A DNA stretch of 64,000 nt from an uncultured Bacteroidales bacterium (lineage in GTDB: Bacteria > Bacteroidota > Bacteroidia > Bacteroidales > Paludibacteraceae), in assembly GCA_945921355.1 (NCBI GenBank), contig CAMEKM010000004.1, positions 6,305 to 70,304 of the forward strand, written 5' to 3'. Under the pieces are notes generated by a model. It had not been told where the DNA came from and searched no databases. It worked only from the letters and a program-made list of their open reading frames with translations. Shown in pieces: positions 8,729 to 55,385 of this stretch. The position numbers and the translations under genes were made by a program. Positions within the stretch are counted from its first letter, which is position 1; each line of letters opens with the position of its first letter.

Positions 8729-8734
8729 GAGAAT

Positions 8735-30407: not shown

Positions 30408-30496
30408 TCATAAAATTAGAGCGTTCGTAATACTCACTGTAGTACGCATTGCTGGAGTACGCTACGCTGGAGTACGACTACGTCTGTAGTTTTTTA

Positions 30497-30847: not shown

Positions 30848-31051
30848 ATCTCTTTTGTTTACTTCACTTTATTATAGTTCGCTTGTATTGCTCACTACAG
30901 AGCGGACTTTGTCATGAAGAGCCCTTTGTTGTATTTCGTTTCACTGTAAATCGTTTCGCTTCCGCTACACTGTAGTGACACTACAGCACCATCGGTGCGC
31001 TCTACAGCGTCAGCGCTCTACAGGGCTTTGCCCGTACTACAGCGAAGCGTA

Positions 31052-32763: not shown

Positions 32764-33150
32764 TCCTTATCGCAAAAACCGCTATATGTACTATGCTCTT
32801 ACTATGTGATTAGTATGTTGTTACTATCTCATTCATAGCACTTGCTAATACCTTCTTTCCCCAATCTCTATCACACTCACTCCCATTCTCATCATCAACA
32901 CTGTGATTGCCTTTAGGACGGTTTGATCGCGTTCTTTATTATTTCTGCTGCAAAGATACTGCTATCTCCAACTACACTGTGGGTTTCCGCCACTTTCTGC
33001 CCGTTTCAGCCCGAATAAAGTAGTTTCTGTCGGTTTCTGCTGTAAAAATACAACATCAATATTGACATTAATGTTTTTTTAATATTAACCTATATTTTTA
33101 ATTATTTTTATAGGCACCAAGTGCCGTATTTTTGTTTCAATTTTTTCTTT

Positions 33151-33397
33151 AACATAAATACGCTCGCTTCGCTTGCTACAAAAATATACAAAAATCATGA
33201 ATCATATTTTGTTTTTGCATATAAGAAGCAGCCCGCTGCTTAAGTATGCAAACCAAAATAACAATTTTCTTGATTATCTACCCATTTTTTTTGTTTTAGT
33301 CACCAATGCGGGACGCATTCATCTGACTAAAAACAAAAAGATGTTTCATCGATTTTTAACTATTTTTATAGGCATCTGTGATGCCGTATTTTTGTTA
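33151..33397 (+). repeat. ~247-bp structured MITE-like element, copy B (preceded by an orphan right end at 33094-33137)
   Basis: Aligns end to end with 8481-8728. Confidence 0.85.
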
Positions 33398-33429
33398 TAA
33401 AAAAACAAAAAAAGGCGGTTACCCGCCTT
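33398..33429 (-). terminator. intrinsic terminator downstream of hipA-2
   Basis: On the minus strand, AAGGCGG-GTAA-CCGCCTT is followed by a T-run (TTTTTTTGTTTTTTT). Confidence 0.6.
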
Positions 33430-33596
33430 AAATCCCCGCCTCTACACTCTACGCCCTACACTCTACACCAGCAGCTCTGCTGCTTGCCTCTAAACTCTAA
33501 ACAGTAGCTCGCCCCGCGAGCGTTCACTAAACACTAAACCCTAAACAGTAGCGCCTCTGGCGCGTCCTCTAAACACCAGCAACTCCGCTGCCCCGC

Positions 33597-34694: not shown

Positions 34695-35019
34695 GCTTGC
34701 GACCTTTGTTGTTTTGGATGATTTCTAATTCTGCCATGGTACGGTAGATAGGTTCTGCCATTACGGCTTGGAGCGGTTGGCTATAGCCCAATGCTTTGGC
34801 AATGGCCACATATTGACGGAGCGATAAGGTGGCTTTCTGCTCAAACTTGGCGATAGTAGCCACAGGCACACCGCTCATCATCGACAGTGCCTCTCGCGAC
34901 AGCCCTCGCTCCAAACGTCGTGCTTTGAGTTGCTCAGCCAATAGGCGCATAATATCTTCGGTTGATTCCGACTCAAATTGATAAAGCAAATTACTACTAT
35001 TGTATTCAATCTCTGCCAT
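34669..35019 (-). CDS. helix-turn-helix transcriptional regulator, HipB-like antitoxin
   Basis: HTH (LSREALSMMSGVPVATIAKFEQ). It overlaps hipA-2 by 26 nt. Confidence 0.78.
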   Translation of the reverse strand: MAEIEYNSSNLLYQFESESTEDIMRLLAEQLKARRLERGLSREALSMMSGVPVATIAKFEQKATLSLRQYVAIAKALGYSQPLQAVMAEPIYRTMAELEIIQNNKGRKHGRNTFRK

Positions 35020-35121: not shown

Positions 35122-35232
35122 TTTTTGGTTTTAGTCACCAATGCGGGACGCATTCCTTTTGACTAAAAGCAAAAACATATTCCCTAGATTTTTAATTATT
35201 TTTATAGGCACATCGTGCCGTATTTTTGTTAT
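35122..35232 (+). repeat. right half of the MITE-like element, copy C
   Basis: Contains hairpin 2 (TTTAGTCACCAATGCGGGACGCATTC..GACTAAA), hairpin 3 (GGCACATCGTGCC) and the right end CGTATTTTTGTT. Confidence 0.8.
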
Positions 35233-35233
35233 T

Positions 35234-35263
35234 AAAAAACAAAAAAAGGCGGTCACCCGCCTT
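35234..35263 (-). terminator. intrinsic terminator downstream of 35442-36302
   Basis: On the minus strand, AAGGCGG-GTGA-CCGCCTT is followed by a T-run. It is a duplicate of the 33398-33429 module. Confidence 0.6.
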
Positions 35264-35441
35264 AAATCCCCGCCTCTACACTCTACGCCCTACACTCTAC
35301 ACCAGCAGCTCTGCTGCTTGCCTCTAAGCTCTAAACTGTAGGCGAAGCCGTCCTCTAAACCCTAAACAGTAGCACCCATGGCGCGTTCTCTAAACAGCGC
35401 TGAAAGCGCGCTCATTATTCAAAGGAGTTAAAGAGCATGGG

Positions 35442-39621: not shown

Positions 39622-40311
39622 TTATATCAATGAATAGTGTTTTAACATTTTTTGTATATTATCTATTGAATTGAACATTAGAATGTCAATCATAGATAAT
39701 CCTGAAATAAACTCATTTCCATATTGTGGATATGGGACTACATTAGATTGTACAAAGTACAAATTTATATTCTCTTTTTCAAAAATACTTTTGTCATACA
39801 ATTCTTGACCACCTATAGCATTGTAATAGGTATCAGCATCTAACAATTTACAGATTTCTAAAATTTTGTCTTGGCCTTTTAAGGTGTTGTCTTTATCAAT
39901 ATCTGAAGACATTATTATCTTAGTCTGGATTCCCAAATACTGGCAGACATGTTTAATACTATTCGCAATGAAATCTGCTAAATTATTTGACTGATAGGAA
40001 AATATCTTATCCAATAATGCCATTACATCATTATAGTATGGCGCCTTATGATATGCCATATGTATAGTTTTGCGTAATTTAGTAAAATCATCCGCAATCG
40101 TAATCTCATTGATTAGTTTATTTTGACTTGCTCCATTCAGCGCAATCGTAAACATTTGCTTATCATTATTCACTAAGATATTATTCCTATTTATCCAGCC
40201 TTTTTTAATGTAATTCACATCATCATATACCACATACGTATCAACAGCTGCCATCAACTGCCAATAACCGATATACGGCATAAAATATGGTTGCATGATT
40301 CCTAATTTCAT
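39622..40311 (-). CDS. WbqC family protein
   Basis: The start MKLGIMQPYFMPYIGYWQL is characteristic of the WbqC family. Confidence 0.75.
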   Translation of the reverse strand: MKLGIMQPYFMPYIGYWQLMAAVDTYVVYDDVNYIKKGWINRNNILVNNDKQMFTIALNGASQNKLINEITIADDFTKLRKTIHMAYHKAPYYNDVMALLDKIFSYQSNNLADFIANSIKHVCQYLGIQTKIIMSSDIDKDNTLKGQDKILEICKLLDADTYYNAIGGQELYDKSIFEKENINLYFVQSNVVPYPQYGNEFISGLSMIDILMFNSIDNIQKMLKHYSLI

Positions 40312-40420
40312 CGTTTAACGTTTTAATGAGTTAGTGTTTAGTGATTCGCTCACTCGTTAATTCCTTCATTCGATCATTCGATAATTCGCTCATTCGTTAA
40401 CTCCTTCACTCGGTCATTAG
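40312..40420 (+). repeat. octamer-periodic tract (TCNTTMAN)n, left copy R1 of the direct repeat bracketing the island
   Basis: AATGAGTTAGTGTTTAGTGATTCGCTCACTCGTTAATTCC... aligns with 50090-50210. Confidence 0.8.
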
Positions 40421-40468
40421 TCGGTGATGAGGAGGTGGTTGATTGGTAGCAAGAAGGTTGTAAAGTTA

Positions 40469-41740
40469 TCAAATATCATTATTCTCACTTAACAAACGTT
40501 TCAGCGAATCTATATCTGGCAAGGCTCGACGTAATTCCTCTGGCATCTCCGCTGATGTATGATACTTAGCCACTCCCATCGGACTATCATAACGTTGGAT
40601 AACATACTCTACATAACTCTTGTCCATATCTTGGCACAAAACGATGCCAATACTCGGATTCTCGTTTGGCTTACGAACCTCATCATCCAATATTTGCAGA
40701 TAAGTTTGCAACTGTCCCAAATAAATCGGCTTAAACTCTCCCAGTTTCAATTCCACAGCGACTAAACACATCAACTCGCGATTATAGAACAATAAATCCA
40801 CAAAATAATCCTTACCAAATTTCTCCAAGTGATATTGATTGCCTACAAATGTAAAATCCTTACCAAACATCATAATGAAGTTCTTCACATTTTGCACAAT
40901 CGCATTCTCCACAACTCTCTCATCCATATCAGCCGCATCACGTACCCCTAACTCTTCCACATTCATATAATCCAACAGATACTCATCCTTAAACATCTCA
41001 ATTGCTTTTAACGCTTGAACACGTTTGGGAAAGGTCGCTAAGAAGTTATTAGGCATCTTAGCTTGATGATGAAACAAATCTTGCTTTAAACAATCGCGTA
41101 ATTTGTATTTATCCCACTTATTCAGTGCTGCTTGGCGAATATAAAAGAGACGTTCCTCTTGTGTCTTGGTTTGAGTCAATATTTCAGTATGATGAGTAAA
41201 ACTAATAGATAAAAAAGCATGAGCGATTTCTACATCAAACATTTCACTGGAAAAATCAAGACGCGTAATAGATGTCAGCAATTTAGTCGCCATCGGCGAC
41301 TCGTTTTCGCTAGCCGTTGGCTGGAAAATTTCTTCTACATTCAATTTTGCAGCCGGCGGCTGCAAAATTGACATCTCACTTATTTTTGCAGCCGCTGGCT
41401 GCAAAAATGGAGTATATTCATTCTCATCAACCAATAGTCGTTGATGTACATGATTGCACCAAACTTCATAGAACTGACGCATATAACGAATACTACGTTC
41501 GCTAAATCCCTTGAGACCTGGCAATTCTTTTCGCAGTTGCTCGCTAATAGCCTTAATAGCACCACTTCCCCACTTCTGAGTTCGTGACTCTTCAGATATA
41601 TATCGACCTACGGAATAATACAAAGCCAAAACATCAGAATTCACATTGCGAATTGTACGAGCTTGACTCTGCAAAATTGCAGTTTTGATAGTTGTTACAG
41701 CCCTTGATATAGAGAGCAAAGTATTATCGTTTTCCATCAT
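40469..41740 (-). CDS. YhcG/DUF1016 family PD-(D/E)xK nuclease-like protein
   Basis: DUF1016 N-terminal pattern (SERSIRYMRQFY) and a C-terminal nuclease-like core (VDLLFYNREL..VAVELK). An internal 3x repeat lies at 41308-41407. Confidence 0.8.
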   Translation of the reverse strand: MMENDNTLLSISRAVTTIKTAILQSQARTIRNVNSDVLALYYSVGRYISEESRTQKWGSGAIKAISEQLRKELPGLKGFSERSIRYMRQFYEVWCNHVHQRLLVDENEYTPFLQPAAAKISEMSILQPPAAKLNVEEIFQPTASENESPMATKLLTSITRLDFSSEMFDVEIAHAFLSISFTHHTEILTQTKTQEERLFYIRQAALNKWDKYKLRDCLKQDLFHHQAKMPNNFLATFPKRVQALKAIEMFKDEYLLDYMNVEELGVRDAADMDERVVENAIVQNVKNFIMMFGKDFTFVGNQYHLEKFGKDYFVDLLFYNRELMCLVAVELKLGEFKPIYLGQLQTYLQILDDEVRKPNENPSIGIVLCQDMDKSYVEYVIQRYDSPMGVAKYHTSAEMPEELRRALPDIDSLKRLLSENNDI

Positions 41741-41765
41741 TTCAATATATATCTATTTCACGCTG

Positions 41766-41797
41766 CAAAGTTACAAAAATCTTTTGGATTATGCAAA
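41766..41797 (-). promoter_or_regulatory. promoter of DUF1016 gene a
   Basis: TAACTTTG at 41766-41773 and TTTG at 41794-41797, with a 20-nt spacer. The module is nearly identical to 50041-50072. Confidence 0.65.
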
Positions 41798-41809
41798 TTA
41801 CTCTCTCGC

Positions 41810-42052
41810 TCACCAGGCGGTAATGACACCATGCTGAGTGGTGTGTGCAAAATTTGCATATACCATATTTTTATCTAGTTCTCCCTCTGCAAAAAAATTG
41901 CTTATATGCCTTCCAATAGCCGTTCTATCTCGTTCAAACAATTGAGCCATTTGTTCCTGCGTAATCCACACAGTTTCCCCATCAAGCCGGACATCAAGTT
42001 GAGTTATTCCGTCTTGCGTTTGATAGATTACTATTTCTCCTTTATCTTCCAT
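41810..42052 (-). pseudogene. RhuM-family virulence/Fic-associated protein, N-terminal fragment only
   Basis: The 80 aa (IVIYQTQDGITQLDVRLDGETVWITQEQMAQLF.RDRTAIGRHI) match a RhuM N-terminus. The ORF stops where the DUF1016 promoter module begins. Confidence 0.6.
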
Positions 42053-42127
42053 TATTTCTTCGTTAAATCATTCACTTTCTTCTCTCGCTTCTCTCTCGGT
42101 GATGAGTCGGTAAAGCTTTATCAATTA

Positions 42128-42218
42128 TTTTACTAGTTGTTTTACTAGTTATTTACCAGTTTATATACTAGTTAAGTCTTTGCTTTACTAGTTATTTTAC
42201 TAGTCATTTTCACTAATT
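42128..42218. repeat. iteron-like array: 7 copies of TTTACTAGT(T) with ~12-bp phasing
   Basis: ACTAGT cores (or one-mismatch variants) start at 42132, 42144, 42155, 42167, 42187, 42199 and 42212. Confidence 0.85.
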
Positions 42219-42351
42219 CATTTATTTTTTTCCTCCGACTCACTTACGAGAGACTTACGGGACAGATACGAGAGGATGAGTCTGCATGTGATCCCAATGT
42301 GTATTACCATTTGCAATTTTGTACATTACGAAATTCACAAGCGAATCTTTA

Positions 42352-43668
42352 CTATAAATCTAACATCATATCTTTTGTAAAGGATAGCATGTATTCATTA
42401 AACTCATCATTTGTTATAAGATGTTCCATCATCTTCCAGAGCATTTCATCTGAAGTGCGACTAAAAGTATTATTGTTGTATACAGAACCTTGTGCTGCAA
42501 TGATAAAATTATATTTACTTAAATGCCTCACTCTCAATTCTGCTTTATTTGAGGTACTTACAATTTTTCCCCTAATTAATGCATGACCATCATCATACTC
42601 TTGACGCGTAATCAATCTATTGCAGAAACGATTACGTTTAAATATCGCATATTCTTCAGAGATATGTTCTAAAATACCATCTTTATACAAATTTCGTTGT
42701 ACTGCGCATTGAGTTTTATACAATCCAGTTGGACTATCTGGCATACATTCAACATATACGTATTGATTATAATATCGAGCAGTAGATGAATACACAACAA
42801 TTCTTTTTATAATAATTTCGTCGCTCCCCATTAAATATTTATTTCCTTTAAGATGTTTGAATTTATCAATGTTGCATGCACTGCCACATCTAAACCACCA
42901 TATAGGGTGAGTCGAATTATGCAACCCTTCTATGGACTGAAAATATAATGGCTGTTCTAATAAAGTAGTTAATGCTCGCTTGATATCCTTTTCTCTTGTA
43001 TATTCTTTCAATCCTCTAAGCCCAGGAAAGGCCTTTCCTATTCGAACATTAAACAATGTTGTGGAATCTTGTACGGCTTTGGGAATAATAGATGGTTTAT
43101 AAAAGTATTTAATTTTTAAATCCTCTACAAAAGAATGAAATTTCTCATACACAGAAGACTGAGGAGTACGATGTTTTCCATTCTTTCTTATTTCCTCAAT
43201 TACTTCCAGAATTGGCTGAGCAAGTTCACATTTAGAGCTATTAAATTGATAGACACGCTTATGATTAATATCGAATGGCAAGTCATTTATGTTCCAACTG
43301 CCTTGATGTGCAACAAGAATGATGTATCTATTTCCAACGGCGGACATCGCATACCCTAATTCCAATAACACATTAGGATTTGTAATCTCTTTATTTTGAG
43401 AACTACCATTCCCTATAAATTTATTAAAAGCTATAATAGGTGTTAGATCACAAATAAAGACATCACACGAATCTATTTTTTGTAAAATGCTGTGATCTAT
43501 TGCAGGCATTCCTGATTCTCCTAACGTAGAATGATCAATCACAACTTCATATCCATAAGATGATAGAAGTTCTTTTTTAGCCGACTCCAAAGCCGACTCT
43601 ATCAATTGTTTCTCTTTGTTCTGCGTATCAGATTGCCAAGAAAAGAATATTTTAAATTGTTTTTTCAT
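42352..43668 (-). CDS. TIR/nucleoside-2-deoxyribosyltransferase-like N-terminal module fused to an unassigned ~290-aa C-terminal region
   Basis: KIFFSWQSD, CDVFICDLTP, NPNVLLELGYA and LPFD motifs lie in residues 1-150. The remainder has no recognisable motif. Confidence 0.6.
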   Translation of the reverse strand: MKKQFKIFFSWQSDTQNKEKQLIESALESAKKELLSSYGYEVVIDHSTLGESGMPAIDHSILQKIDSCDVFICDLTPIIAFNKFIGNGSSQNKEITNPNVLLELGYAMSAVGNRYIILVAHQGSWNINDLPFDINHKRVYQFNSSKCELAQPILEVIEEIRKNGKHRTPQSSVYEKFHSFVEDLKIKYFYKPSIIPKAVQDSTTLFNVRIGKAFPGLRGLKEYTREKDIKRALTTLLEQPLYFQSIEGLHNSTHPIWWFRCGSACNIDKFKHLKGNKYLMGSDEIIIKRIVVYSSTARYYNQYVYVECMPDSPTGLYKTQCAVQRNLYKDGILEHISEEYAIFKRNRFCNRLITRQEYDDGHALIRGKIVSTSNKAELRVRHLSKYNFIIAAQGSVYNNNTFSRTSDEMLWKMMEHLITNDEFNEYMLSFTKDMMLDL

Positions 43669-43674
43669 ACAAGC

Positions 43675-44667
43675 CTATATGCGATTGTTTTTGACAAGGC
43701 GCCAATAATACTTACCAATAGGAGTTAAACGGCAAGACTTAGATTCCATAGCAGCAAAATACATAAAAGGAGCGCCAACTGGTTCGATGAAACCTATTTT
43801 TTGCAATTCTTGCAAGCACTTAAATTTCTTTATGTTTTCCGCATTAGCATATGGTTCTATGTATTTATGCTCTACTGTTGGGCTGTTCGTATCCTCATAT
43901 GAAGGATCCAAGGCATACTCCTTGTCCTGAGTTTCAAATAAAGCAGTAAGTTGATGAATCGTTTCATTTGGAACTCTAGGTGTCACATTTCGAATGGCTA
44001 CAAATTCCGACACATTCGTCTTAAATATAGGCCTTTGATCCCAAGCCCCTAACGAGCGATCAATATAAGCATATATTCCTCCCATTGTGATATTACCACT
44101 GAAGTCGGCAGCTTCTCCACTTAGAGCCGTTGTTAACAACTCTGTAAATATACCATGGCCACCCATTTCTACAGCTGATTCATCATCACGACATGCAGTA
44201 AGAATGGAAACTCCTGATGCCAATACGCTTGTCACAGCATCCACATCATTGGCCCCGAGTAAACCTGAGTGACAACAATCTAAAATCAAAACTTTGTGCT
44301 TAGCCTTTGAGTGATTTGCAATATCCATCAGATAATCCATCTTTATCCCTAATTTGGAATAATCTTTATTTACAGTTGCTATGTCAACATCTTGGGGGAA
44401 TACTAATTGTCCTCCATTGGCATCAACATATCCATGACCAGAAAAATAGAATAATGCTATATCTGCATCATCATGAAAGAGGTGTTCTATATATCCCTTT
44501 GCGTCTTCACTACGTTGCAAATCCGGCAATAGCATTATATCAAAGTTCTTTGAATTATCTTCGTTTCGTTCTAATACCGAAGCCAGCGCATTGATATCTT
44601 CAATGCATCCATGCAATTCACTACCGGCTGGGTAGTTATTTATACCTATTAAAAGTGCTCTTCTCAT
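43675..44667 (-). CDS. caspase-like (peptidase C14) protease with a ~100-aa C-terminal extension
   Basis: ALLIGINNY, FYFSGHGY (His78) and LILDCCHSG (Cys131/132) motifs. Confidence 0.85.
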   Translation of the reverse strand: MRRALLIGINNYPAGSELHGCIEDINALASVLERNEDNSKNFDIMLLPDLQRSEDAKGYIEHLFHDDADIALFYFSGHGYVDANGGQLVFPQDVDIATVNKDYSKLGIKMDYLMDIANHSKAKHKVLILDCCHSGLLGANDVDAVTSVLASGVSILTACRDDESAVEMGGHGIFTELLTTALSGEAADFSGNITMGGIYAYIDRSLGAWDQRPIFKTNVSEFVAIRNVTPRVPNETIHQLTALFETQDKEYALDPSYEDTNSPTVEHKYIEPYANAENIKKFKCLQELQKIGFIEPVGAPFMYFAAMESKSCRLTPIGKYYWRLVKNNRI

Positions 44668-44669
44668 GA

Positions 44670-45074
44670 TTATTTTGCCAAATTACGTATTGCTTGAACG
44701 ATAGATTCTGTATTCCATTTCACAATATCATCTGCTCTTTCTTGAATAACACGCGAGACATGCTCTTGTCCCCACGGAATGACACCTAAAACAGGGATAT
44801 TATTTTCAATAGCCGTATCAAGTTCCCATTGCATCCACTCGCTATACGATGCATATACTCCGGCAAGACCGATTACTACATCAGCCTTTTCAATTAAAGG
44901 CCTTACACATGCATGTAAATAATATACATTATCCGAATTAAATTTATTTTCTGGAGTTACTTCCAAAAAATCTACCTTAAAATAGCCACGCTCCTCCAGC
45001 AGTGCCCTAAGACTCTCTAAATCATCCAAATGATCCCATGAATGACTAATGAAAAGATTATAAGTTTTTGTCAT
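44670..45074 (-). CDS. TIR-like domain protein (DUF1863/ThsB type)
   Basis: 134 aa with NLFISHSWDH (beta1) and SEWMQWELDTAI (conserved Glu84). Confidence 0.75.
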   Translation of the reverse strand: MTKTYNLFISHSWDHLDDLESLRALLEERGYFKVDFLEVTPENKFNSDNVYYLHACVRPLIEKADVVIGLAGVYASYSEWMQWELDTAIENNIPVLGVIPWGQEHVSRVIQERADDIVKWNTESIVQAIRNLAK

Positions 45075-45184
45075 ATAAATTAAGTTTAAATGTTGATTTT
45101 GTTTTAATTATTATCCACCCCCGAATCTCTCCCATAAGCGAGTCGTGTTTGTCTCTCGCTCTTCTCTCGGTCATCTCTCGGTGG

Positions 45185-46378
45185 TTACTTATTTGCTTTC
45201 ATCAGTCGTTTTGTTTCACGCAGCTCTTTTTGCAGGAGTTCCATGCGTTCCTTCAGTTGCTCTTGCGTCGGAAGCATGTCCTTGATGCGTACATTATTAT
45301 ATGTTGCCACTCCCATCGGAGTGCTGATGCCACGGAACGACCATTGTACATCGGCTTTATTCATATCCGAACAAATGAGCAAGCCTATCGTCGGATTATC
45401 ATCCTCTGCTTTCAACAAGTCATCTACTGCATTGACGTAAAAATTCAGTTTTCCGGCAAACTCCGGTTCAAACGCTTTGGCTTTCAGTTCGCACACTATA
45501 TAGCAACGCAAACGGATATGATAGAAAAGCAAATCAATCTTGCGTGTAGTATCTCCGGCAATCAGTTCTTTCTGTCTTCCTATAAACGCAAAGCCGGTTC
45601 CGAGTTCCAACAAAAGATCCGTTACACTTTTGCTCAATGCTTCTTCTAACTCCTGCTCATCGTAAATCTCATGCTTCACGGTTGCAAAGCCAAAGTCATA
45701 ATTCTCCTTGAGTACTTCTTGCGCCAATTTGCTCTGCAATGCGGGCATGTGCTCGGCGAAGTTATTGAGAATCTTTCCTTGATGCTCATATAGATTAGCT
45801 TTGATGCAGTTCACCAGCGCCGCACGACTCATACCCTGCTCTATCGTCTTTCCTACATAGAAGAGCGCTTCATCAACTGATTTGCATTTGGAAATAATAG
45901 CAATATGATGTCCCCATGGAACGTATGCAAAAGAAGACGGAAATTCTCCAACGGGTTGCTGGAGTTTTTGAGAATCAATTTCTGCAACAGTTTGTTGCAG
46001 TTTTGAACTTAAAATTTCTCCAACAACTTGTTGGAGTTTTGTATCCTCCTGATAATAAAACAGATACCACTGTTTCATATACCATAGATTCGTAGTCGAG
46101 AAACCTTCTGCATTCGGGAACTCACGCTGGAGATCAAGGCTCACTTGCTCCACCACACCTGCGCCCCAACGCTCTTCGGCTTTCTTTTGCACTAAATCGC
46201 GTCCCAGTTCCCAATTGAAGAGCAACTTCTCTGCATTTACACGCACAGAAGCCTTCACTTGCGCCGAACGATACCGATGTTTCAACTCGGCAATCCATTC
46301 CGCGTAATCCGTATCAATGCGTATGTCGTGAGATTTCACGATACGCGGTTGCTTTGATATTTCATTTTCTTCTATCAT
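45185..46378 (-). CDS. YhcG/DUF1016 family PD-(D/E)xK nuclease-like protein
   Basis: STTNLWYMKQWY, VPWGHH and IDLLFYHIRLRCYIVCELK motifs. An internal 3x palindromic repeat lies at 45941-46040. Confidence 0.8.
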   Translation of the reverse strand: MIEENEISKQPRIVKSHDIRIDTDYAEWIAELKHRYRSAQVKASVRVNAEKLLFNWELGRDLVQKKAEERWGAGVVEQVSLDLQREFPNAEGFSTTNLWYMKQWYLFYYQEDTKLQQVVGEILSSKLQQTVAEIDSQKLQQPVGEFPSSFAYVPWGHHIAIISKCKSVDEALFYVGKTIEQGMSRAALVNCIKANLYEHQGKILNNFAEHMPALQSKLAQEVLKENYDFGFATVKHEIYDEQELEEALSKSVTDLLLELGTGFAFIGRQKELIAGDTTRKIDLLFYHIRLRCYIVCELKAKAFEPEFAGKLNFYVNAVDDLLKAEDDNPTIGLLICSDMNKADVQWSFRGISTPMGVATYNNVRIKDMLPTQEQLKERMELLQKELRETKRLMKANK

Positions 46379-46467
46379 TTTCTAAATTTGTCTCCCGGTC
46401 ATCTCCCGCTCATCGGTCGGTGAATATTTCTAAATGTTTACCTCTATCCTGACCAAGACAACAGAAG

Positions 46468-47952
46468 TCACATTATTAATCTAGCCTCATCGGGTTCCTT
46501 ATAGGCATTCGTTATTGTTAAATACTCATGAGCCTCTTCAAAACTACCACAAGGAATGCGCCCTGCATATTGTTGCATCTTATCTAAAACTTGTACAAGC
46601 GTAGAGATATCTCTTTGGTGACTAAATTTCTTCAAAGCTAATATATAATCATCGCGAAACACATTTGGAATGATTACTTTCGATTGACGCTGACTAACCA
46701 ACTCGGCATTCATCATAATGCGTGCCATACGCCCGTTACCATCATCAAATGGATGCACCTCAGCTATTATCACATGCATCATGATGGCTCGTGCCATCGG
46801 ATGAGTTAATGCATTATACAATCCGAATGCCTTCAACAATGTTCCTCTGACATATTCATAATCCACGAAATACGTCTCGCCGGCATGATTATTCCGCATT
46901 TTGAATAATCCCGGGTTCTTCGTTTGGCGAGCTTCTAATAATATCTTATGACGAGCCTGAAGCATTTGTAACAGTTCCTCCGCTGCTTGCGGAATACGCT
47001 GCATCTCTCTCTTATTAGCCGCGACAAAGTATGTCCCTAATATATCATGTGAGTCATCACGACGAGAAGGCATCGGACGTCCAGTCGAAATAATCGTCCG
47101 CGCATCCTCAATGGTAAATTCTGTTCCTTCGATATAATTGGAAAAATAACTCTCGAAAAATGCAAAATTTCTAAACGCTTTATCTTCCCACTGTACATTT
47201 TCTCGATAAGCAAACTCATAATTAGTCAAAAAGGCGAACGCTTTTTGAAACAAATCCATACGTTCCGCATCATAGGGTTCACCCATAGCACGCGCGATAG
47301 TAAGAGGAGAACGCAAAATGGATGAAGTGTGAGTCGTTAATATCGCACTAATGAGTTGGGATAGTTTTGCAAACTCCTTTTGGAATCCAAGTCTTTCAGC
47401 GGTCTCCCTTGCTTCATCACGCAATACATTCAATGCAGTTTCGCCATTGACTCGCACTATCTTCTCTAATTTCTCTTCAATCTGTTGCTGCCCCAAACAC
47501 TTATCTGCTCCGCCAATATTCTTAGATGCTTGCATATTTTCCAAAAAAGCGCGTGTCTGATGTGACATATATAAGCCATCTATGAACGGCCGATCATTGG
47601 CATCAACTTGCGGACCTTCTAATAAATGAACGGTAACTCCCGGTAGAATTATCTTTCTGGAATATTTATAGGTGAGAAATATATCACCTGAAGAGGTTGG
47701 CATACATTCAAATGCCGTGCGGTGACTTAAAATTGCCCCAGGATACAATCTGCCAAGTATAGAGAAAATGTTTCTCCGCACGATGTCCTCTCCTTTTGCC
47801 TCAAAATTAGTTGTGTATATCTTCGGGGCAATACGACGTATCTTTCCTTGCTTGAGAAGCTTGGAAATAGCATCTGAGGATTTCTTATCCGTTCCGGCAA
47901 ACATTACCTCATGTAATACTTGATAAGCAATATCTTCGGGATTTTTTTTCAT
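46468..47952 (-). CDS. Fic family protein (class II-like, internal inhibitory motif) with an extra N-terminal domain
   Basis: Fic motif HPFDDGNGRMAR. An (S/T)xxxE(G/N) motif, SNYIEG, lies upstream of it. Confidence 0.88.
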   Translation of the reverse strand: MKKNPEDIAYQVLHEVMFAGTDKKSSDAISKLLKQGKIRRIAPKIYTTNFEAKGEDIVRRNIFSILGRLYPGAILSHRTAFECMPTSSGDIFLTYKYSRKIILPGVTVHLLEGPQVDANDRPFIDGLYMSHQTRAFLENMQASKNIGGADKCLGQQQIEEKLEKIVRVNGETALNVLRDEARETAERLGFQKEFAKLSQLISAILTTHTSSILRSPLTIARAMGEPYDAERMDLFQKAFAFLTNYEFAYRENVQWEDKAFRNFAFFESYFSNYIEGTEFTIEDARTIISTGRPMPSRRDDSHDILGTYFVAANKREMQRIPQAAEELLQMLQARHKILLEARQTKNPGLFKMRNNHAGETYFVDYEYVRGTLLKAFGLYNALTHPMARAIMMHVIIAEVHPFDDGNGRMARIMMNAELVSQRQSKVIIPNVFRDDYILALKKFSHQRDISTLVQVLDKMQQYAGRIPCGSFEEAHEYLTITNAYKEPDEARLIM

Positions 47953-47970
47953 TATCTCTCAATTTTGCCG

Positions 47971-48002
47971 CAAAGATACGGATTTTTTTTGATTTATGCA
48001 AG
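47971..48002 (-). promoter_or_regulatory. promoter upstream of fic
   Basis: TATCTTTG at 47971-47978 and a -33-like TTGC about 20 nt upstream. I see no other canonical promoter motif between here and 42352. Confidence 0.5.
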
Positions 48003-48087
48003 TGTTTTGCGGATTTTTTTAGATTAATACTCTTCTTGTAAGGATTTTTTTATTACGATTCGTATTTTTTCTCGCTCATATTATTCA

Positions 48088-48146
48088 ATTAATTTCTCGC
48101 TCTTCCCTCGGTCATCTCCCGCTCATCGGTTGGTGATGAGTCGGTA
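48088..48146 (+). repeat. island junction repeat J5 (longest copy)
   Basis: TCTCGCTCTTCCCTCGGTCATCTCCCGCTCATCGGTTGGTGATGAGTCGGTAAA. Partial copies lie at 40405-40440, 42085-42116, 45150-45186 and 46390-46425. Confidence 0.8.
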
Positions 48147-48158
48147 AATAAAGTGTTT

Positions 48159-48650
48159 CTATTCCTTATCTACAATTATTGCTTCCACAAATTGTAATTG
48201 CAATAACGCTTTGTCCGTATGAAACGATACTTGATTAAACAGCACATGCGTTTTCAGTTGCACTACGGCAGCTTCTGCACTCAACTCCGCATTCTCATAC
48301 AAGCTGATGGTGGCATACAAGTTATCATTCGCTACTGGACCAAGCACAATATCATAATCATGCAACGGAGCAAAGCGACGATTGGCAACCACAAAATCCA
48401 ACCACTCCTTGGTCGCTCCGTTGTACTCCATTATCTTCAATACACCATCATTCAATAGATTATCATCCACCTCATATACAGACACCACTGCATTGCCTTC
48501 TCCAGCACGGTCGCGGCGAATACGCGCCCAACGGGCTGCCTGGTCAAAATCAACTGTGGTATAAAAGCCCTTGCCATAATCGGTATTGGGCCTACCTTGG
48601 CGAAGACTGGGTTTCCTGATCGTTACTGTTGAACCATGATATAGTTTCAT
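48159..48650 (-). CDS. DUF3990 domain-containing protein
   Basis: The pattern MKLYHGS....DYGKGFYTT..FDQAARWA is typical of DUF3990. Confidence 0.7.
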   Translation of the reverse strand: MKLYHGSTVTIRKPSLRQGRPNTDYGKGFYTTVDFDQAARWARIRRDRAGEGNAVVSVYEVDDNLLNDGVLKIMEYNGATKEWLDFVVANRRFAPLHDYDIVLGPVANDNLYATISLYENAELSAEAAVVQLKTHVLFNQVSFHTDKALLQLQFVEAIIVDKE

Positions 48651-48697
48651 ATTGCTTAATCTATTTTGTGACTATTCGAGGATTACTTTTTTTTATT

Positions 48698-49337
48698 AAC
48701 ATAAATACGCTGCGCTAGCGCTTGCTACAAAAATATACAAAAATCTTGTTATTCTATTTTGTTTTTGCATATAAGAAGCAGTTACTGCTTAAGTATGCAA
48801 AACAAAATTATTTTTGGTTGATATAATTAGGAACAATTTTGTATTTCAAAGGCACTTCTCCAAAGTTAATCAATATACCTAGTGGTAAGTTGGTTGCTTT
48901 TAGATAGTTTAATAGTTGTGCCGTATGCTCAGTCCTTAATTTTTCAACAGATTTGAGTTCTACAACTATATTGTCATAGCATACTAAATCAGCTTTGTAT
49001 GTTCGATCAAGTAAATGTCCTTTATAAGTGATTGTAATTAATTTCTCTGTTTCAAAAGGAATTCCACGTAACCCTAATTCAACATTCAACGCATCATGGT
49101 ACACCAACTCCAAAAAGCCTCGTCCTAAATGGTTCTGTACTTCCATAGCAGCACCAATGATATCAAAAACTTCTTGCTGGAATTGTATGTCGTTAGATTT
49201 GTTCATATCAGTTTCATTATTACATCTTTTGTTCTTGCTCACCAATGCAGTGTACTGCATTCAGTTGAGCAAGAGCAAAAAAAGTTTCTTGATTTTTAAT
49301 TATTTTTATAGGCATCAGAGATGCCGTATTTTTGTTT
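48698..49337 (+). mobile_element. MITE-like element copy D carrying a GxxExxY gene as cargo
   Basis: The left part (48698-48810) and right part (49215-49337) match the two halves of the empty copy at 49354-49597. The cargo sits between hairpin 1 and hairpin 2. Confidence 0.75.
48808..49206 (-). CDS. GxxExxY protein (PD-(D/E)xK-like; 23S rRNA IVS-protein-type family)
   Basis: IIGAAMEVQNHLGRGFLELVYHDAL and VVELK...LLNYLKATNLPLGILINF motifs. The start is set at MNKSND, because the longer ORF reads through the element's hairpin. Confidence 0.85.
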   Translation of the reverse strand: MNKSNDIQFQQEVFDIIGAAMEVQNHLGRGFLELVYHDALNVELGLRGIPFETEKLITITYKGHLLDRTYKADLVCYDNIVVELKSVEKLRTEHTAQLLNYLKATNLPLGILINFGEVPLKYKIVPNYINQK

Positions 49338-49353
49338 AAGTATTATTCTTTCT

Positions 49354-49597
49354 AACATAAATACGCTGCGCTGGCGCTTGCTACAAAAATATACAAAAAT
49401 CTTGTTATTCTATTTTGTTTTTGCACATAAGAAGCAGTATACTGCTTAAGTATGCAAAACAAAATTATTTTTTCCAATATTTCTTTTGTTCTTGCTCACC
49501 AATGCAACTTGGTTGCATTCATTTGAGCAAAGACAAAAGGATTATCTCCATGATTTTTAATTATTTATATAGGGCTTTAAAGCCCGTATTTTTGTTT
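49354..49597 (+). repeat. ~244-bp structured MITE-like element, copy E (empty)
   Basis: Same architecture as copies A and B, but with compensatory changes in all three stems. Confidence 0.85.
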
Positions 49598-49601
49598 CAA
49601 A

Positions 49602-50018
49602 TTACTTTTTTCTATTGTTAATAAATATATCTATATCGTGCAAAATCATGTCCTTACCTTGTGTATGAAGCATATCAAAGCCTTTTACCAGATACTCATC
49701 GACCCCATAACGACGGAAGAGAGCGTATGCCTCTAGTGAGGTCATATCATGTTTTTTTGCATAATTTTCAGTACAAAAAGTTAAAAATACAATCACATTA
49801 TTCGATACGATATGCCCGCTAGAGAACCTGCTTTGTTCCAATAAGCGATAAAGTGATTCTGTATCCAGATACCACCACTTGGCATTTTCATCGTACAACT
49901 TTGCATAAAAGGGCGAGTCATAAATATAGCCCAACGCAGCTCTCACGGGGATATGCTTGCGCTGCGAGACAAGCAACGCCAATTGTGATATTTTTAATGG
50001 AATAATAGATGCACTCAT
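49602..50018 (-). CDS. DUF3791 domain-containing protein
   Basis: 138 aa. This is a family-level guess based on size, sequence pattern and pairing with DUF3990. Confidence 0.55.
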   Translation of the reverse strand: MSASIIPLKISQLALLVSQRKHIPVRAALGYIYDSPFYAKLYDENAKWWYLDTESLYRLLEQSRFSSGHIVSNNVIVFLTFCTENYAKKHDMTSLEAYALFRRYGVDEYLVKGFDMLHTQGKDMILHDIDIFINNRKK

Positions 50019-50040
50019 ATTCTTATGTTATTTATCGCTG

Positions 50041-50072
50041 CAAAGTTACAAAAAACTTTTGGATTATGCAAA
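50041..50072 (-). promoter_or_regulatory. promoter of the DUF3791 gene
   Basis: TAACTTTG at 50041-50048 and TTTG at 50069-50072, with a 20-nt spacer. Confidence 0.65.
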
Positions 50073-50089
50073 TTTTACGTTTAATGCTT

Positions 50090-50210
50090 ATCGATTTAAT
50101 GTTTAATGAGTTAACGTTTAGTGATTCGTTCACTCCCTAATTCGTTCACTCTTTCAATCGTTAATTCGTTAACTCCTTAACTCCTTCATGCGTTCATTCC
50201 TTAACTCCTT
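50090..50210 (+). repeat. octamer-periodic tract (TCNTTMAN)n, right copy R2 of the direct repeat bracketing the island
   Basis: AATGAGTTAACGTTTAGTGATTCGTTCACTCCCTAATTCG... aligns with 40312-40420. Confidence 0.8.
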
Positions 50211-51360
50211 AATTCCTTACACACTCTATCACTCGTGTTACGTCCTCTTCGCTCAACGCATGGTGCATTGGTAAGCAAATCACCTGATTAGCAATCTTAT
50301 TCGCCATAGGCAAATTTACTGGGTTGGCACTTGGAATATCCTTATACGGATCAAAGTCCGTAATCAAAGGATAGAAATAGCGACGACCTAACACATTATT
50401 TGCCTTCATCTTCTCATATAACGCATCACGGGAGATGCCGTATTGTTCTTCGTCCACAAAAATGGGGAAATAACTAAAATTTAAGCGATGAGGCGAAAGG
50501 TTATTAGGCGATGAGGCAAGAGTATCAATCATTGGTTGGAAGATTTTTATTCCTTTCACATCTTGCAATGCCTCTACATATTGTTTAGCAACCTTTTTGC
50601 GTGCCTCGATTGCAGCATCAACTTGGCGGAGATTAAGCAGACCATATGCCGCACGCATCTCGTCCATCTTGCTATTGATACCTGGAGCCACAACAGTAGT
50701 TTCACCACGGAAACCGAAGTTCTTCAGGTTGTCCACATGGTACTTCATCTCTGCGGAATGGCAAATTAATGCACCGCCCTCAATCGTATTATACACTTTG
50801 GTAGCATGGAAACTCAAAGTGGAGATGTCGCCTGCATTTAATACCGATTGTCCGTTCTCAATGACGCCAAAAGCGTGCGCGGCGTCGTAGATTACTTTCA
50901 GATTATGCTTTTTAGCAATCGCATCAATCTCGGCTGTCTTGCATGGTTTACCATAGCAATGCACTGGCATGATAGCTACCGTATTGGGCGTAATGGCTGC
51001 CTCAATCTTCGCAGGATCAATGCCACAGGTTTCTTCCTCGATGTCCACAAAGACGGGCTTTAAGCCGTTCCACCAGATTGAGTGGCTAGTTGCTACAAAC
51101 GAATATGGTGTAGTAATCACCTCTCCCTCGTGAATGCCCAGTGCTTGGAAAGCCGTAATGAGCGGCAAAGTACCATTAGTAAATAGCGACAGAAACTCTA
51201 CTCCAAGATACTTGGCGAGTGCCTGCTCCAATTGTTGATGGAACTGACCATTATTTGTAATCCATTTACTATCCCATATCTGCTGCAGATATAAGGTAAA
51301 CTCCTCCAATGGTGGGAGTAATGGGGAAGTGACAGTGATTTGTGATTTATTTTCACTCAT
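50209..51360 (-). CDS. DegT/DnrJ/EryC1/StrS family aminotransferase
   Basis: PLLPPLEEF, DAAHAFG and SFHATKVYNTIEGG (PLP Lys) motifs. An in-frame repeat insert is encoded at 50483-50520. Confidence 0.9.
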   Translation of the reverse strand: MSENKSQITVTSPLLPPLEEFTLYLQQIWDSKWITNNGQFHQQLEQALAKYLGVEFLSLFTNGTLPLITAFQALGIHEGEVITTPYSFVATSHSIWWNGLKPVFVDIEEETCGIDPAKIEAAITPNTVAIMPVHCYGKPCKTAEIDAIAKKHNLKVIYDAAHAFGVIENGQSVLNAGDISTLSFHATKVYNTIEGGALICHSAEMKYHVDNLKNFGFRGETTVVAPGINSKMDEMRAAYGLLNLRQVDAAIEARKKVAKQYVEALQDVKGIKIFQPMIDTLASSPNNLSPHRLNFSYFPIFVDEEQYGISRDALYEKMKANNVLGRRYFYPLITDFDPYKDIPSANPVNLPMANKIANQVICLPMHHALSEEDVTRVIECVRN

Positions 51361-51364: not shown

Positions 51365-52651
51365 TCAACTCAATTTCTTCTCAGTATAATCAAACTTAGG
51401 TGTGATATCTCCAGGTTCTTTACCCATCCAGCCACCGATTGCTATTGCACGATTAGCCAATGTGAATGAGATAAAGTCTTGTTCATGCATTAGACATTCT
51501 ATATTGCTTGGTTGACTAAATGCCATAAAATCAAATGCATAACTACCCCAATTGAAGAAATCTTTAGGCAGATGGCAAATTTGCTCGTACTCACCAGTTT
51601 CATGCTTGGTTTCATAGCAGCGCCCTCCACCACACGTAGAGAACATACGCTCGCCTTGCTCGTTCTTCATATGCATGGTAATCCAAAACTTCTCGTGTGG
51701 TTGGGTCAGACGATAACGAATCACCACCTCCAAATCGTCGGTCACACGCATCACATCAGTGAACTGCCCACACTTAGGGCGCACACCTATCTCTAAGAGT
51801 TCAAAGCCATTTTTGCCTTTAAGCGGTTCGTTGTATACCTTGTAGTTATCAATATCATTATCACCACGCAAATAACGAGTTACGATAGGGTCAATATCAC
51901 CTGAATCAAGTAGCATACCATCCTTCAGGATAATACCATGCTTGCAGAGACTCTTCACACTGGTCATGTTATGACTCACGAAGAGGACGGTTCTGCCTTC
52001 GCCGCGGGAGACGTCTTGCATCTTGCCGATGGCTTTCTTTTGGAACTCGGCATCGCCGACGGCGAGGACTTCGTCCACGACAAGAATCTCAGGGTCCAAG
52101 TGCGCAGCCACAGCGAAGCCCAAGCGGACAGTCATACCTGAACTATAACGCTTAACTGGCGTGTCGATATACTTCTCGCAGCCAGAGAAAGCAACAATCT
52201 CGTCCAACTTACCAGCGATCTCCTGTTTGGTCATACCCATGATGGCACCGTTCATAAAGATGTTCTCACGGCCAGTCATCTCAGGGTGGAAGCCCGTACC
52301 GACCTCCAAGAGACTGGCGATACGACCGCGAGCGCGGATAGTGCCCACCGTGGGACCAGTGACTTTACTGAGGAGTTTGAGGAGCGTACTCTTGCCTGCG
52401 CCATTCTTACCGATGATGCCGACAACGTCGCCCTGCTCGACCTTGAAGTCGATATCACGGAGTGCCCAGACATACTCAGAATCGGCTTTCTGGGTGCGGT
52501 CGTTGACCGAGCCGATCTTGAGGTAGGGGTCTTCTTTGCGCAGGATGGCGGTTTGCCACCAGCGGTTGAGGTCGTGGCTGATAGTGCCTGTGGACACGAG
52601 GCCCAGGCGGTATTGTTTGCCTACGTGGTTGAATTCGATTGCTGTTGCCAT
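51365..52651 (-). CDS. polysaccharide/O-antigen ABC transporter ATP-binding protein (Wzt/TagH type) with a C-terminal extra domain
   Basis: Walker A GKNGAGKST, signature YSSGM and Walker B LVVDEVLAVGD, plus a ~170-aa C-terminal domain. Confidence 0.9.
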   Translation of the reverse strand: MATAIEFNHVGKQYRLGLVSTGTISHDLNRWWQTAILRKEDPYLKIGSVNDRTQKADSEYVWALRDIDFKVEQGDVVGIIGKNGAGKSTLLKLLSKVTGPTVGTIRARGRIASLLEVGTGFHPEMTGRENIFMNGAIMGMTKQEIAGKLDEIVAFSGCEKYIDTPVKRYSSGMTVRLGFAVAAHLDPEILVVDEVLAVGDAEFQKKAIGKMQDVSRGEGRTVLFVSHNMTSVKSLCKHGIILKDGMLLDSGDIDPIVTRYLRGDNDIDNYKVYNEPLKGKNGFELLEIGVRPKCGQFTDVMRVTDDLEVVIRYRLTQPHEKFWITMHMKNEQGERMFSTCGGGRCYETKHETGEYEQICHLPKDFFNWGSYAFDFMAFSQPSNIECLMHEQDFISFTLANRAIAIGGWMGKEPGDITPKFDYTEKKLS

Positions 52652-55309: not shown

Positions 55310-55385
55310 TGGTAGTGCTACCGGGAATCGAACCCGGGTTTACGGCGTGAGAGGCCGTTGTCCTAGGCCACTAGACGATAGCACC
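55310..55385 (-). tRNA. tRNA-Glu (anticodon CUC), CCA encoded
   Basis: A manual cloverleaf fits: acceptor GGTGCTA/TAGCACT, D arm GTCT..GGAC, anticodon stem ACGGC/GCCGT with loop CTCTCAC, and T arm CCGGG-TTCGATT-CCCGG. Total length 76 nt. Confidence 0.9.

Follow-up and report, generated by a model that had tools for sequence, protein, structure and literature searches.

Our analyses of a 64,000-nucleotide (nt) stretch of DNA from an uncultured Bacteroidales bacterium of the family Paludibacteraceae, here called the window, indicate that the junction between two of its surface-glycan genes, encoding a DegT/DnrJ/EryC1 aminotransferase (DegT) and a WbqC-family protein (WbqC), is probably a recombination-driven hot spot at which anti-phage defence cassettes collect and are replaced over time. 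In the window these two genes are separated by 9,897 nt (40312-50208; coordinates are positions in the whole window unless a relative's locus is named), which contain ten open reading frames (ORFs), all on the WbqC/DegT strand, and an octamer-periodic element, R, at either end (copies R1 and R2). In loci of related organisms, labelled L001-L184, the same junction is found empty, occupied by a single R, or filled with other cargo. Overall this is an ordinary defence hot spot, and it is its repeat and promoter "adaptors" that are unusual. The unusual characteristics are the position of the site at a coupled overlap within an operon, the promoter-led cassettes with reproducible edges, and the families of periodic linkers, which are also linked to 23S_rRNA_IVP (IVP), GxxExxY and DUF559 genes and to in-frame inserts in glycosyltransferase genes.

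The DegT-WbqC Junction in the Window and in Related Loci

Every ORF from about 35.4 to 52.7 kb of the window is carried by the minus strand, and the host operon is a surface-glycan operon of the ABC-transporter (Wzt) type. In the loci L001, L008, L015, L162-166 and L170-172, the stop codon of DegT and the start codon of WbqC overlap as ATGA and no repeat is present; L001 is close to the window in both proteins (93% and 84% amino acid (aa) identity for DegT and WbqC, respectively), and the WbqC proteins of L162-166 and L170-172 are 86-89% identical to that of the window. The ancestral junction, as read from these sequences, is a 4-nt ATGA overlap in which DegT and WbqC are predicted to be translationally coupled, and because this ancestral state has no intergenic DNA, the stretch 40312-50208 represents inserted material. 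DegT ends in ECVRN* in the window, L002 and L176 and in ECIRVKE* in L167 and L005; at the empty sites the endings are CVRG*, CIRE* and similar. The TAA stop codon of the window's DegT (50209-50211) falls inside R1, which extends over the last two DegT codons (to ~50217). The motif scan revealed no promoter motif between the WbqC-proximal DUF1016 gene (DUF1016a) and the ATG of WbqC.

The intermediate and filled states of this junction are equally informative (Table 1). A single R of about 105 nt lies between the DegT stop codon and the WbqC start codon in L167-169 (WbqC identity 86%), and in all of the filled relatives the cargo comprises 2-10 kb of defence-type genes that are co-oriented with the operon. 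R is present on one side only in L005, L006, L176 and L003, and it is lacking at the filled sites of L173/174 and on the left side of L004/L006; hence, R and the cargo are, on the evidence of these arrangements, separable, since R1-only, R2-only and R-less filled sites exist. An identical WbqC protein (P0016) is encoded in L173/174, where the cargo is of the SIR2 type, and in L175, where it is a HATPase gene, which indicates turnover at the strain level. Remnants of the WbqC 5' end (about 19-28 codons) are found in L003 (13662-13740), L006 (16464-16535), L181 (7366-7432) and L178 (~3868-3911), with the downstream glycan genes replaced; those of L003, L006 and L181 retain the R leader, and the degenerate copy of L178 is without R. 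The remnants suggest that recombination has repeatedly had a breakpoint just within WbqC, where the locus passes into its low-GC, serotype-specific part. The site thus displays the features by which defence hot spots are recognized, viz. conserved flanking genes, differing cargo, empty sites and cargo enriched in defence genes.

A preliminary description of this region, made from the sequence of the window, had proposed that an accessory island without an integrase or transposase splits a normally adjacent WbqC/DegT pair and holds only non-polysaccharide genes. The ATGA overlaps in the relatives bear out the normal adjacency, the gene families that it named in the ten ORFs are all recognized by Pfam/PADLOC, and its observation on mobility genes agrees with our scans with Pfam, NCBIfam and PADLOC profiles, in which no integrase, transposase or relaxase was detected among the ten island ORFs or about 35 other ORFs of the window; an integrase or transposase was likewise not seen among the annotated cargo genes of the relatives. 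The split itself stands, but its bounds have been corrected to 40312-50208, with R1 running into DegT. The relatives that it called for, differing in content and including a DegT-WbqC junction with a single repeat, also exist, the latter in L167-169. The suggested profiling of GC content and of GC content at third codon positions (GC3) did not prove diagnostic of insertion: the conserved module (Wzt, DegT) has 44-49% GC and the serotype-specific module (WbqC onwards) 30-33%, and the island, lying at their boundary, is itself heterogeneous, with GC3 per gene varying between 0.26 and 0.45.

The relatives of DegT, from metagenome-assembled genomes (MAGs) of gut and rumen, assign the window to Paludibacteraceae. 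No exact-protein matches were found for the DegT and WbqC of the window, and a metagenome scan with WbqC yielded relatives of at most 60% identity together with three short partial matches. Megablast searches with the island gave no match in plasmid and phage collections.

The Junction Element R

R1 consists of a purine-rich tract, (GGAGTTAA/CGAATTAA)n, followed by a tail, CGAATCACTAAACGTTAACTCATTAAAC... The preliminary description had noted direct octamer repeats at the two ends of the island, and this observation is well supported: positions 40310-40418 and 50090-50198 are 79% identical over 109 ungapped nt, and the identity is 61-62% when the two copies are slid by one octamer (shift 8). 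As a control for collinearity, the octamer units of R2 were shuffled 2000 times; no shuffle attained the Smith-Waterman score of R1 and R2, which is 63 (mean of the shuffles 30.6, standard deviation 5.8, maximum 53). In addition, the 27-nt tail CGAATCACTAAACRYTAACTCATTAAA has exactly two copies in the window, one at each end of the island, where none would be expected. R1 and R2 agree without interruption over at most 15 nt, and among R copies overall, which are ~80% alike, any invariant core is limited to ~19 nt. Similarity of the flanks above that of other copies of the repeat, which the preliminary description took as a requirement, holds against the unit shuffles but not against other R copies: R1 and R2 align to the solo R of L167 with scores of 66 and 61, R1 aligns to the R1 of L176 with a score of 64, and a copy from a different site (L003_7478) scores 61 against R1 and 48 against R2. 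Together these alignments point to R1 and R2 as true homologues; a recent duplication of one from the other is not demonstrated, and duplication on insertion is plausible.

The distribution of R was surveyed with an nhmmer profile built from five R copies and run on 2.55 Mb of fetched loci and the window. Almost all of the matches lie at the boundaries of the DegT-WbqC hot spot, and all are on the gene strand. Two other cargo boundaries also carry R, viz. L165 11039-11143 (in the order IVP, R, promoter module, AAA_15/DUF4435) and L003 7479-7586 (between RhuM and GxxExxY genes). Orthologues of R2 precede WbqC or its remnants in L002, L006, L003, L175 and L181. The octamer family of R also makes up the inverted arms around an IVP gene in L003, and a 19-nt string, TAAACACTAACTCATTAAA, is identical between the R2 of the window and an arm in L003. 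The sense strand of R is rich in A (41-44%) and poor in C (11-17%) and has 5/6/7 (R1) and 6/4/3 (R2) stop codons in the three frames.

Because the ancestral junction is without intergenic DNA, R itself appears to have been inserted where the two genes had no gap between them, and not to have been an intergenic repeat from the start. An earlier suggestion of insertion into a pre-existing intergenic repeat is thus upheld as regards the existence of a single-repeat state, but not as regards a repeat original to the junction. No target-site duplication is evident at the ATGA junction, and neither R1 nor R2 has the terminal inverted repeats of a palindromic element or a miniature inverted-repeat transposable element (MITE). 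Inverted repeats are lacking in the R2 region and limited to one 14-nt pair in the R1 region, and the tail is partly complementary to the tract. The folding z-scores of six R copies were +0.2, -2.4, -1.0, -3.0, +0.1 and +0.2 (+0.2 and -2.4 being those of R1 and R2), and owing to this inconsistency the idea that R forms a long RNA or DNA hairpin, like the stem of an intervening sequence, was dropped as a defining property. R1 and R2 share the tract-then-tail order, and for this reason they are not regarded as the two halves of a tandem array that was split. Searches of Rfam yielded no family at the gathering threshold and only noise at E <= 1, the patterns of R and of the promoter module described below were not found in IMG/VR, and literature searches found no published description of such periodic elements in Bacteroidota.

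Promoter Modules, Terminal Tracts and Mosaic Structure

A second recurrent element is a 46-nt putative promoter module, P (TTTGCATAATCCAAAAGTTTTTTGTAACTTTGCAG...), which is found twice in the island (P1 and P2). Its strict pattern occurs in 13 of the 184 loci, always on the gene strand and at the start of cargo. Four different cargo genes have P in front of them: DUF3791 in the window, L004 and L006; DUF1016 in the window, L178, L181 and L184; a SatD-like gene in L176; and an AAA_15 gene in L165. The promoter motif matches at 41766-41797 and 50041-50072 with a near-match at 47961-48002, and the Fic gene has a promoter-like site of its own (47959-48004) that belongs to the same repeat family as P. 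A scan for sigma-70 promoters was uninformative for Bacteroidota, with 44 sites against 48 expected. Most of the cassettes close with an 11-nt-periodic tract, T, of which further copies are present in L002, L004, L175, L178 and L181. No convincing sense-strand terminators were seen at the cassette ends.

The clearest example of a cassette is [P2 - DUF1016a - T5]. In a blastn comparison, positions 41799-40259 of the window and 5940-7427 of L181 form one collinear match (80.4% identity over 1554 nt) that covers P2, DUF1016a, T5 and R2 and reaches ~50 nt into WbqC. On the left, the cassette has the same edge (41799-41802) in L181, L178 and L184, and on the right it stops at 40404, where T5 ends, in L178; these reproducible edges of homology indicate that [P-DUF1016-T] is a discrete unit, which occurs in four contexts. 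At the same left edge an 80-aa RhuM fragment, 68% identical to the N-terminus of a full-length RhuM (L003:6425-7471; PF13310, 6e-90), is cut off, and homology to the other loci begins at 41799.

At the opposite end of the island, a nested insertion of the form A-B-A'-GxxExxY-B' separates DUF3791 from DUF3990. Its B (49343-49472) and B' (48687-48815) parts are direct repeats of ~130 nt and ~95% identity that bracket the GxxExxY gene. The two DUF genes adjoin with a 7-nt gap in L004/L005, which represents the empty site, and L006 holds a 96% identical copy of the GxxExxY element. The left block (P-DUF3791-DUF3990, with the nested GxxExxY in the window and L006) is found alone in L004/L006, and the right block [P-DUF1016-T-R-WbqC] is found alone in L181. 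The island is, by these comparisons, a mosaic that was not inserted as one piece; it looks like an L004/L006-type allele joined to an L181-type allele, with Fic, the second DUF1016 gene (DUF1016b), the TIR-caspase operon and the RhuM fragment between them.

Origin of the Hot Spot and Alternative Explanations

In the explanation that we favour, R would have colonized the gap-less junction first, giving the solo state, and would have acted as an adaptor that supplied a new stop codon for DegT and an independent, unstructured leader for WbqC in place of the lost coupling. Cargo would then be gained, lost and concatenated through RecA-type homologous recombination. Whole alleles could be exchanged through the conserved flanks, with Wzt/DegT on one side and R2 and the 5' end of WbqC on the other, and unequal or double crossovers in shared R, P and T modules could stack cassettes while leaving R at each end. 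Transcription from the cassette promoters would read through to WbqC and the downstream glycan genes; the promoter of each cassette and the fact that no sense-strand terminator was seen suggest such read-through, by which the insertion would be tolerated.

Several points weigh against this explanation. It gives no account of how R entered the ATGA overlap, and the transcription, read-through and defence activity that it invokes are predictions from sequence. R1 and R2 resemble R copies of foreign species at least as much as they resemble each other, so that their duplication at insertion is not demonstrated, and a 15-nt exact run with 79% identity makes a poor RecA substrate, so that exchange between the present R1 and R2 should be inefficient. 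The R-less filled sites indicate that R is not required for the gain of cargo. Lastly, the relatives are throughout MAGs or metagenome contigs from other species or strains, with the direction of gain and loss assigned by parsimony, and the loci surveyed for R were picked via DegT, WbqC or DUF1016, which biases the survey towards this site.

The main alternative, which we regard as somewhat unlikely, is that the bracket is coincidental, R1 and R2 being independent copies of a dispersed periodic element that settles at boundaries and the cargo having arrived otherwise. Such an element would account for the solitary R of L167-169, the one-sided R of L005, L176 and L006, the copies at the other boundaries in L003 and L165, and the R1/R2 score of 63, which equals the scores against foreign copies (57-66); related periodic elements insert even within glycosyltransferase ORFs. 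It would leave to coincidence, however, that R-cargo-R arrangements have arisen in three independent cases at one site (window, L002 and L175) and that the R matches in 2.55 Mb are concentrated at cargo boundaries, and recombination at R would be expected to produce exactly the states that are seen, with R absent, single or duplicated. That the resemblance of R1 and R2 reflects chance similarity of low-complexity sequence, or that the island is an assembly chimera, is extremely improbable. The tracts are indeed short-period and AT-rich, and many tracts of 7, 8 and 11 nt exist in the window and its relatives, but the unit shuffles, the non-trivial 27-nt tail restricted to the two island ends and the recurrence of the junction sequences in independent assemblies (L002, L176, L181 and L167-169) effectively refute this possibility.

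Two further alternatives involve dedicated mobility. R and/or T could be sites for a recombinase encoded elsewhere, in the manner of integrons or att sites, with the [P-ORF-T] units as its cassettes; the discrete cassette edges (41799-41802 in three loci, 40404 in one), the T-type tract after most cassettes and the conserved tail at both island ends are in keeping with this proposal. It is nonetheless quite improbable, given that no integrase or transposase was detected in the examined ORFs of the window or the annotated cargo of relatives, that neither inverted repeats nor hairpins are a consistent feature of R and T (z from +0.2 to -3.0), that the cassettes have promoters of their own, unlike those of integrons, and that R copies ~80% alike lack an invariant core beyond ~19 nt. 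A broader possibility, also unlikely though less so, is an undescribed integrase-less cassette system in Paludibacteraceae, in which the [P-ORF-T] units and the periodic adaptors derive from one mobility mechanism based on short-period repeats. Its adaptors may include R at cargo boundaries, the inverted arms around 23S-IVP/Avd-like genes and the in-frame hairpins of glycosyltransferases, and it might be driven by small nuclease or Avd-like genes that travel with the elements (GxxExxY, DUF559, IVP). Mobility dedicated to periodic elements or cassettes may exist, but it has no direct support among the present findings. Were it real, it would allow accessory genes to enter operons, overlapping gene pairs included, and leave these intact. 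The accretion of cassettes by homologous recombination at the DegT-WbqC junction remains our preferred explanation.

Genes of the Island and Other Elements of the Window

Nearly all of the island genes match known or candidate defence families in PADLOC (Table 1), and these family matches make the island a candidate for anti-phage defence. The TIR-caspase trio forms an operon (42352-45074) with intergenic gaps of 2 nt (TIR/caspase) and 6 nt. Both DUF1016 genes contain tandem repeats of 36-39 nt (2.4-2.7 copies; 41312-41406 and 45944-46041) in the linker between their N-terminal and nuclease domains, with motifs such as LQPAAAK.. and KLQQ..

Table 1. Features of the DegT-WbqC region of the window and arrangement of the filled junctions in related loci.
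Locus	Feature or arrangement	Positions	Strand	Evidence or remark
Window	Wzt-like ABC ATPase gene, precedes DegT	51365-52651	(-)	
Window	DegT/DnrJ/EryC1 aminotransferase gene	50209-51360	(-)	Pfam PF01041, 2e-96; upstream flank
Window	R1, octamer-periodic junction element	50075-50217	(-)	nhmmer R profile, E = 1.5e-26
Window	P1 promoter module (TTTGCATAATCCAAAAGTTTTTTGTAACTTTG, Bacteroidota -33/-7 type), before DUF3791	50029-50074	(-)	93% identical to 41754-41799; motif scan
Window	DUF3791 gene	49602-50018	(-)	PADLOC candidate system PDC-M13, paired with DUF3990
Window	Nested insertion A-B-A'-GxxExxY-B' between DUF3791 and DUF3990	48651-49601	(-)	~950 nt
Window	GxxExxY (PDDEXK_3) gene	48808-49260	(-)	TIGR04256, 2.5e-41
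Window	DUF3990 gene	48159-48650	(-)	PDC-M13 partner (PADLOC)
Window	T1, 11-nt-periodic purine-rich tract (TTTACCGACTCATCACC...GAGATGACCGAGGGAAGAGCGAGA), after DUF3990	48101-48148	(-)	
Window	Fic-domain protein gene, 494 aa	46468-47952	(-)	Pfam Fic, 2e-11; PADLOC PDC-S04/SoFic; AbiEi-like N-terminus
Window	T2 tract, between Fic and DUF1016b	46388-46424	(-)	
Window	DUF1016/YhcG copy b, PD-(D/E)xK nuclease family	45185-46378	(-)	PADLOC PDC-S02
Window	T3 tract, after DUF1016b	45149-45196	(-)	
Window	ThsB-type TIR gene	44670-45074	(-)	ThsB_TIR, 3.4e-10; PADLOC ThsB, 5.6e-15
Window	Caspase-like C14 protease gene	43675-44667	(-)	Peptidase_C14, 1.3e-17; PADLOC caspase, 3.5e-23
Window	438-aa protein gene, weak N-terminal CAP12-type TIR	42352-43668	(-)	25.5 bits, cut-off 24.7
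Window	12-nt-periodic tracts (TAACTAGTAAAA)n and T4 tract (TTTACCGACTCATCACCGAGAGAGAAGCGAGAGAAGA), after TIR-caspase trio	42078-42274	(-)	
Window	RhuM N-terminal fragment, 80 aa	41810-42052	(-)	PADLOC PDC-S05, 2.9e-30, profile positions 1-75
Window	P2 promoter module, before DUF1016a	41754-41799	(-)	93% identical to P1
Window	DUF1016/YhcG copy a	40469-41740	(-)	PADLOC PDC-S02
Window	T5 tract, after DUF1016a	40403-40439	(-)	
Window	Cassette [P2 - DUF1016a - T5]	40404-41799	(-)	blastn edges shared with other loci
Window	R2, octamer-periodic junction element, A-rich leader directly before WbqC ATG	40312-40425	(-)	nhmmer E = 4.2e-25
Window	WbqC-family gene	39622-40311	(-)	Pfam PF08889, 2.5e-72; downstream flank
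L002	R - Cas2-like 87-aa protein and two unknown proteins - R			2.7 kb
L175	R - HATPase_c protein - R tail			
L173/174	1223-aa protein, AAA_15, HTH, SIR2_2			9.5 kb; no R
L176/177	R - P - SatD-like/DUF3307 ... DUF4062			5.6 kb
L005	R - DUF3791 - DUF3990 - P63C - AAA_15/DUF3226 - AbiC			
L004	P - DUF3791 - DUF3990 ... SIR2			
L006	P - DUF3791 - GxxExxY - DUF3990 - KAP NTPase - R - WbqC remnant			
L003	AAA_15/21 pair - octamer arm - IVP gene - complementary arm - WbqC remnant			
L181	119-aa ORF - P - DUF1016 - T - R - WbqC remnant			

The GxxExxY element belongs to a family of ~260 nt whose parts A and B each contain hairpins or palindromes. Solo copies of A-B that lack the gene and are 90% alike occur between glycan genes at 8470-8733, 33140-33404 and 35122-35239 and in L184 (5585-5850), and the element looks, from its structure, like a small mobile element with MITE-like derivatives. 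Periodic heptamer or octamer inserts are found in frame in glycosyltransferase family 2 (GT2) ORFs, viz. 22511-23425 (inserts ~23248-23150 and ~23011-22970), 24002-24853 (~24676-24614) and, in L004, 12406-13977 and 14503-15609, those of L004 having strong hairpins (RNA fold z = -3.1 and -4.0). All of these inserts share one loop (after ...YADN/E), add 14-57 residues and contain no stops. A DUF559 (Vsr-like endonuclease) domain is present in frame with a FemAB-like acyltransferase at 11968-13626 (-) and with the GT2 protein of L004 12406-13977; it is flanked by TCCTTCCCTTTAGGGAAGGA-type hairpin repeats, copies of which lie in the window at 165-200, 12683-12718 and 13343-13470.

Genes of the 23S_rRNA_IVP family (four-helix-bundle, bAvd-like) are located between glycan genes at 30497-30847 and 11420-11785 and, in relatives, in L003 (13235-13603), L004 (14109-14477) and L165 (10650-11021). 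Where the flanks were examined (30497-30847, L003 and L004), inverted periodic arms stand on either side of the gene, with a 15-mer, an octamer or a heptamer as the unit, depending on the copy; the arms of the gene at 30497-30847 are 30439-30476 and 31033-31055. The arms resemble rRNA intervening sequences, yet they sit in mRNA operons. A 180-nt heptamer array precedes the IVP gene at 11420-11785, octamer tracts lie on both sides of that of L165, and in L165 and L176 an IVP gene stands immediately before a P module and defence cargo.

Heptamer-tract direct repeats also bracket two toxin-antitoxin modules of the HipBA type (33597-35019 and about 13623-15444), in the first case 33382-33575 and 35216-35396 (90-97% identical over ~190 nt) and in the second 11802-11981 and 15575-15785, which are (GGGTGTA/GAGTGTA)n arrays of 25-30 units. 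With the island, periodic direct repeats around cargo thus occur three times in the window. Short-period tracts (7, 8, 10 and 11 nt) are common across the glycan loci of Paludibacteraceae/Bacteroidales (window and L001-L080): the window has 13 of at least 30 nt, close relatives have several in each 20-kb locus, and they fade in more distant Bacteroidales; for almost all tracts of the window the purine-rich strand is the sense strand. The glycan locus is also interspersed with two AAA_14/DUF4143 ATPase genes (10047-11192 and 15806-17095, both (-)). A tRNA gene (55313-55385 (-)) lies just past the FBPase gene, and dnaA is located at 1597-2961 (-), so that the glycan locus may be near the replication origin.

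Significance and Comparison with Known Systems

Descriptions of defence hot spots usually place them between operons or beside tRNA genes. The present one is placed at a translationally coupled overlap within a surface-glycan operon, itself a phage-receptor locus, and the cargo appears to be accommodated there by a stop codon and a leader from the junction element and by a promoter in each cassette, with no sense-strand terminator seen. The graded states of the junction, viz. overlap, solo repeat, repeat-cargo-repeat and mosaic arrays, provide a testable model of integrase-free cassette accretion in gut Bacteroidales, and the cassette edges and the P module are handles for finding more defence cargo in uncultured Paludibacteraceae.

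Known periodic or palindromic elements include the 23S rRNA intervening sequences with IVP ORFs, the Rickettsia palindromic elements and the heptamer STRR (short tandemly repeated repetitive) sequences of cyanobacteria. The octamer arms of L003, which enclose in inverted orientation an IVP gene located immediately ahead of the WbqC remnant, are similar to 23S rRNA intervening sequences, and the related periodic hairpins that lie in frame inside glycosyltransferase genes are similar to Rickettsia palindromic elements. R1 and R2 differ from rRNA intervening sequences in lacking an IVP gene, in the shortness of their complementary tail, in showing no significant RNA structure and in being sited in mRNA operons. 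As regards the cargo, type IV Thoeris consists of a TIR protein and a caspase-like effector (10.1101/2024.10.24.620036; PMC13243611). The island operon resembles it, by gene architecture alone, in having a ThsB-type TIR gene followed after a 2-nt gap by a caspase-like C14 protease gene, and differs from it in the extra, tightly linked 438-aa protein with a weak CAP12-type TIR domain.

Integrase-borne islands differ from this one in having a tyrosine or serine recombinase gene at one end and short, nearly identical att direct repeats, often with a tRNA gene as target. The repeats of the present island have only 79% identity and match exactly over no more than 15 nt in a row, and its target is an overlap of protein genes, the only tRNA gene being at 55313-55385. 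Integron arrays and clusters of attC sites lacking integron-integrases (CALINs) resemble it in their serial, small cassettes of one orientation, each followed by a related non-coding element, and in cargo rich in toxin and defence genes. Unlike them, the island has no IntI and no attC-type imperfect palindromes, its cassettes have their own promoters, and purine-rich tracts of tandem direct repeats mark its junctions.

Core defence hot spots exist in Pseudomonas and E. coli, and in Streptococcus suis a variable defence locus holds defence cargo between conserved genes (PMC5398294). The minimal mobile elements of Neisseria are cassettes free of mobility genes that are exchanged between conserved flanks, presumably by homologous recombination (PMC3787668; PMC3082526). 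The junction described here resembles the latter in its lack of mobility genes, and its mosaic blocks and WbqC remnants point to breakpoints in the flanks, through which exchange may have taken place; it differs in that its cassettes are stacked in arrays, in that the P, T and R modules could serve as homology, and in that natural transformation is not known for this organism. With defence hot spots it shares a fixed position, lineage-specific systems, strain-level turnover and empty sites in relatives. It is distinguished from them by its location within an operon at a 4-nt coupled overlap, by the periodic R and T linkers at its boundaries, and by cargo that is entirely co-oriented with the operon, promoter-led and apparently read through.

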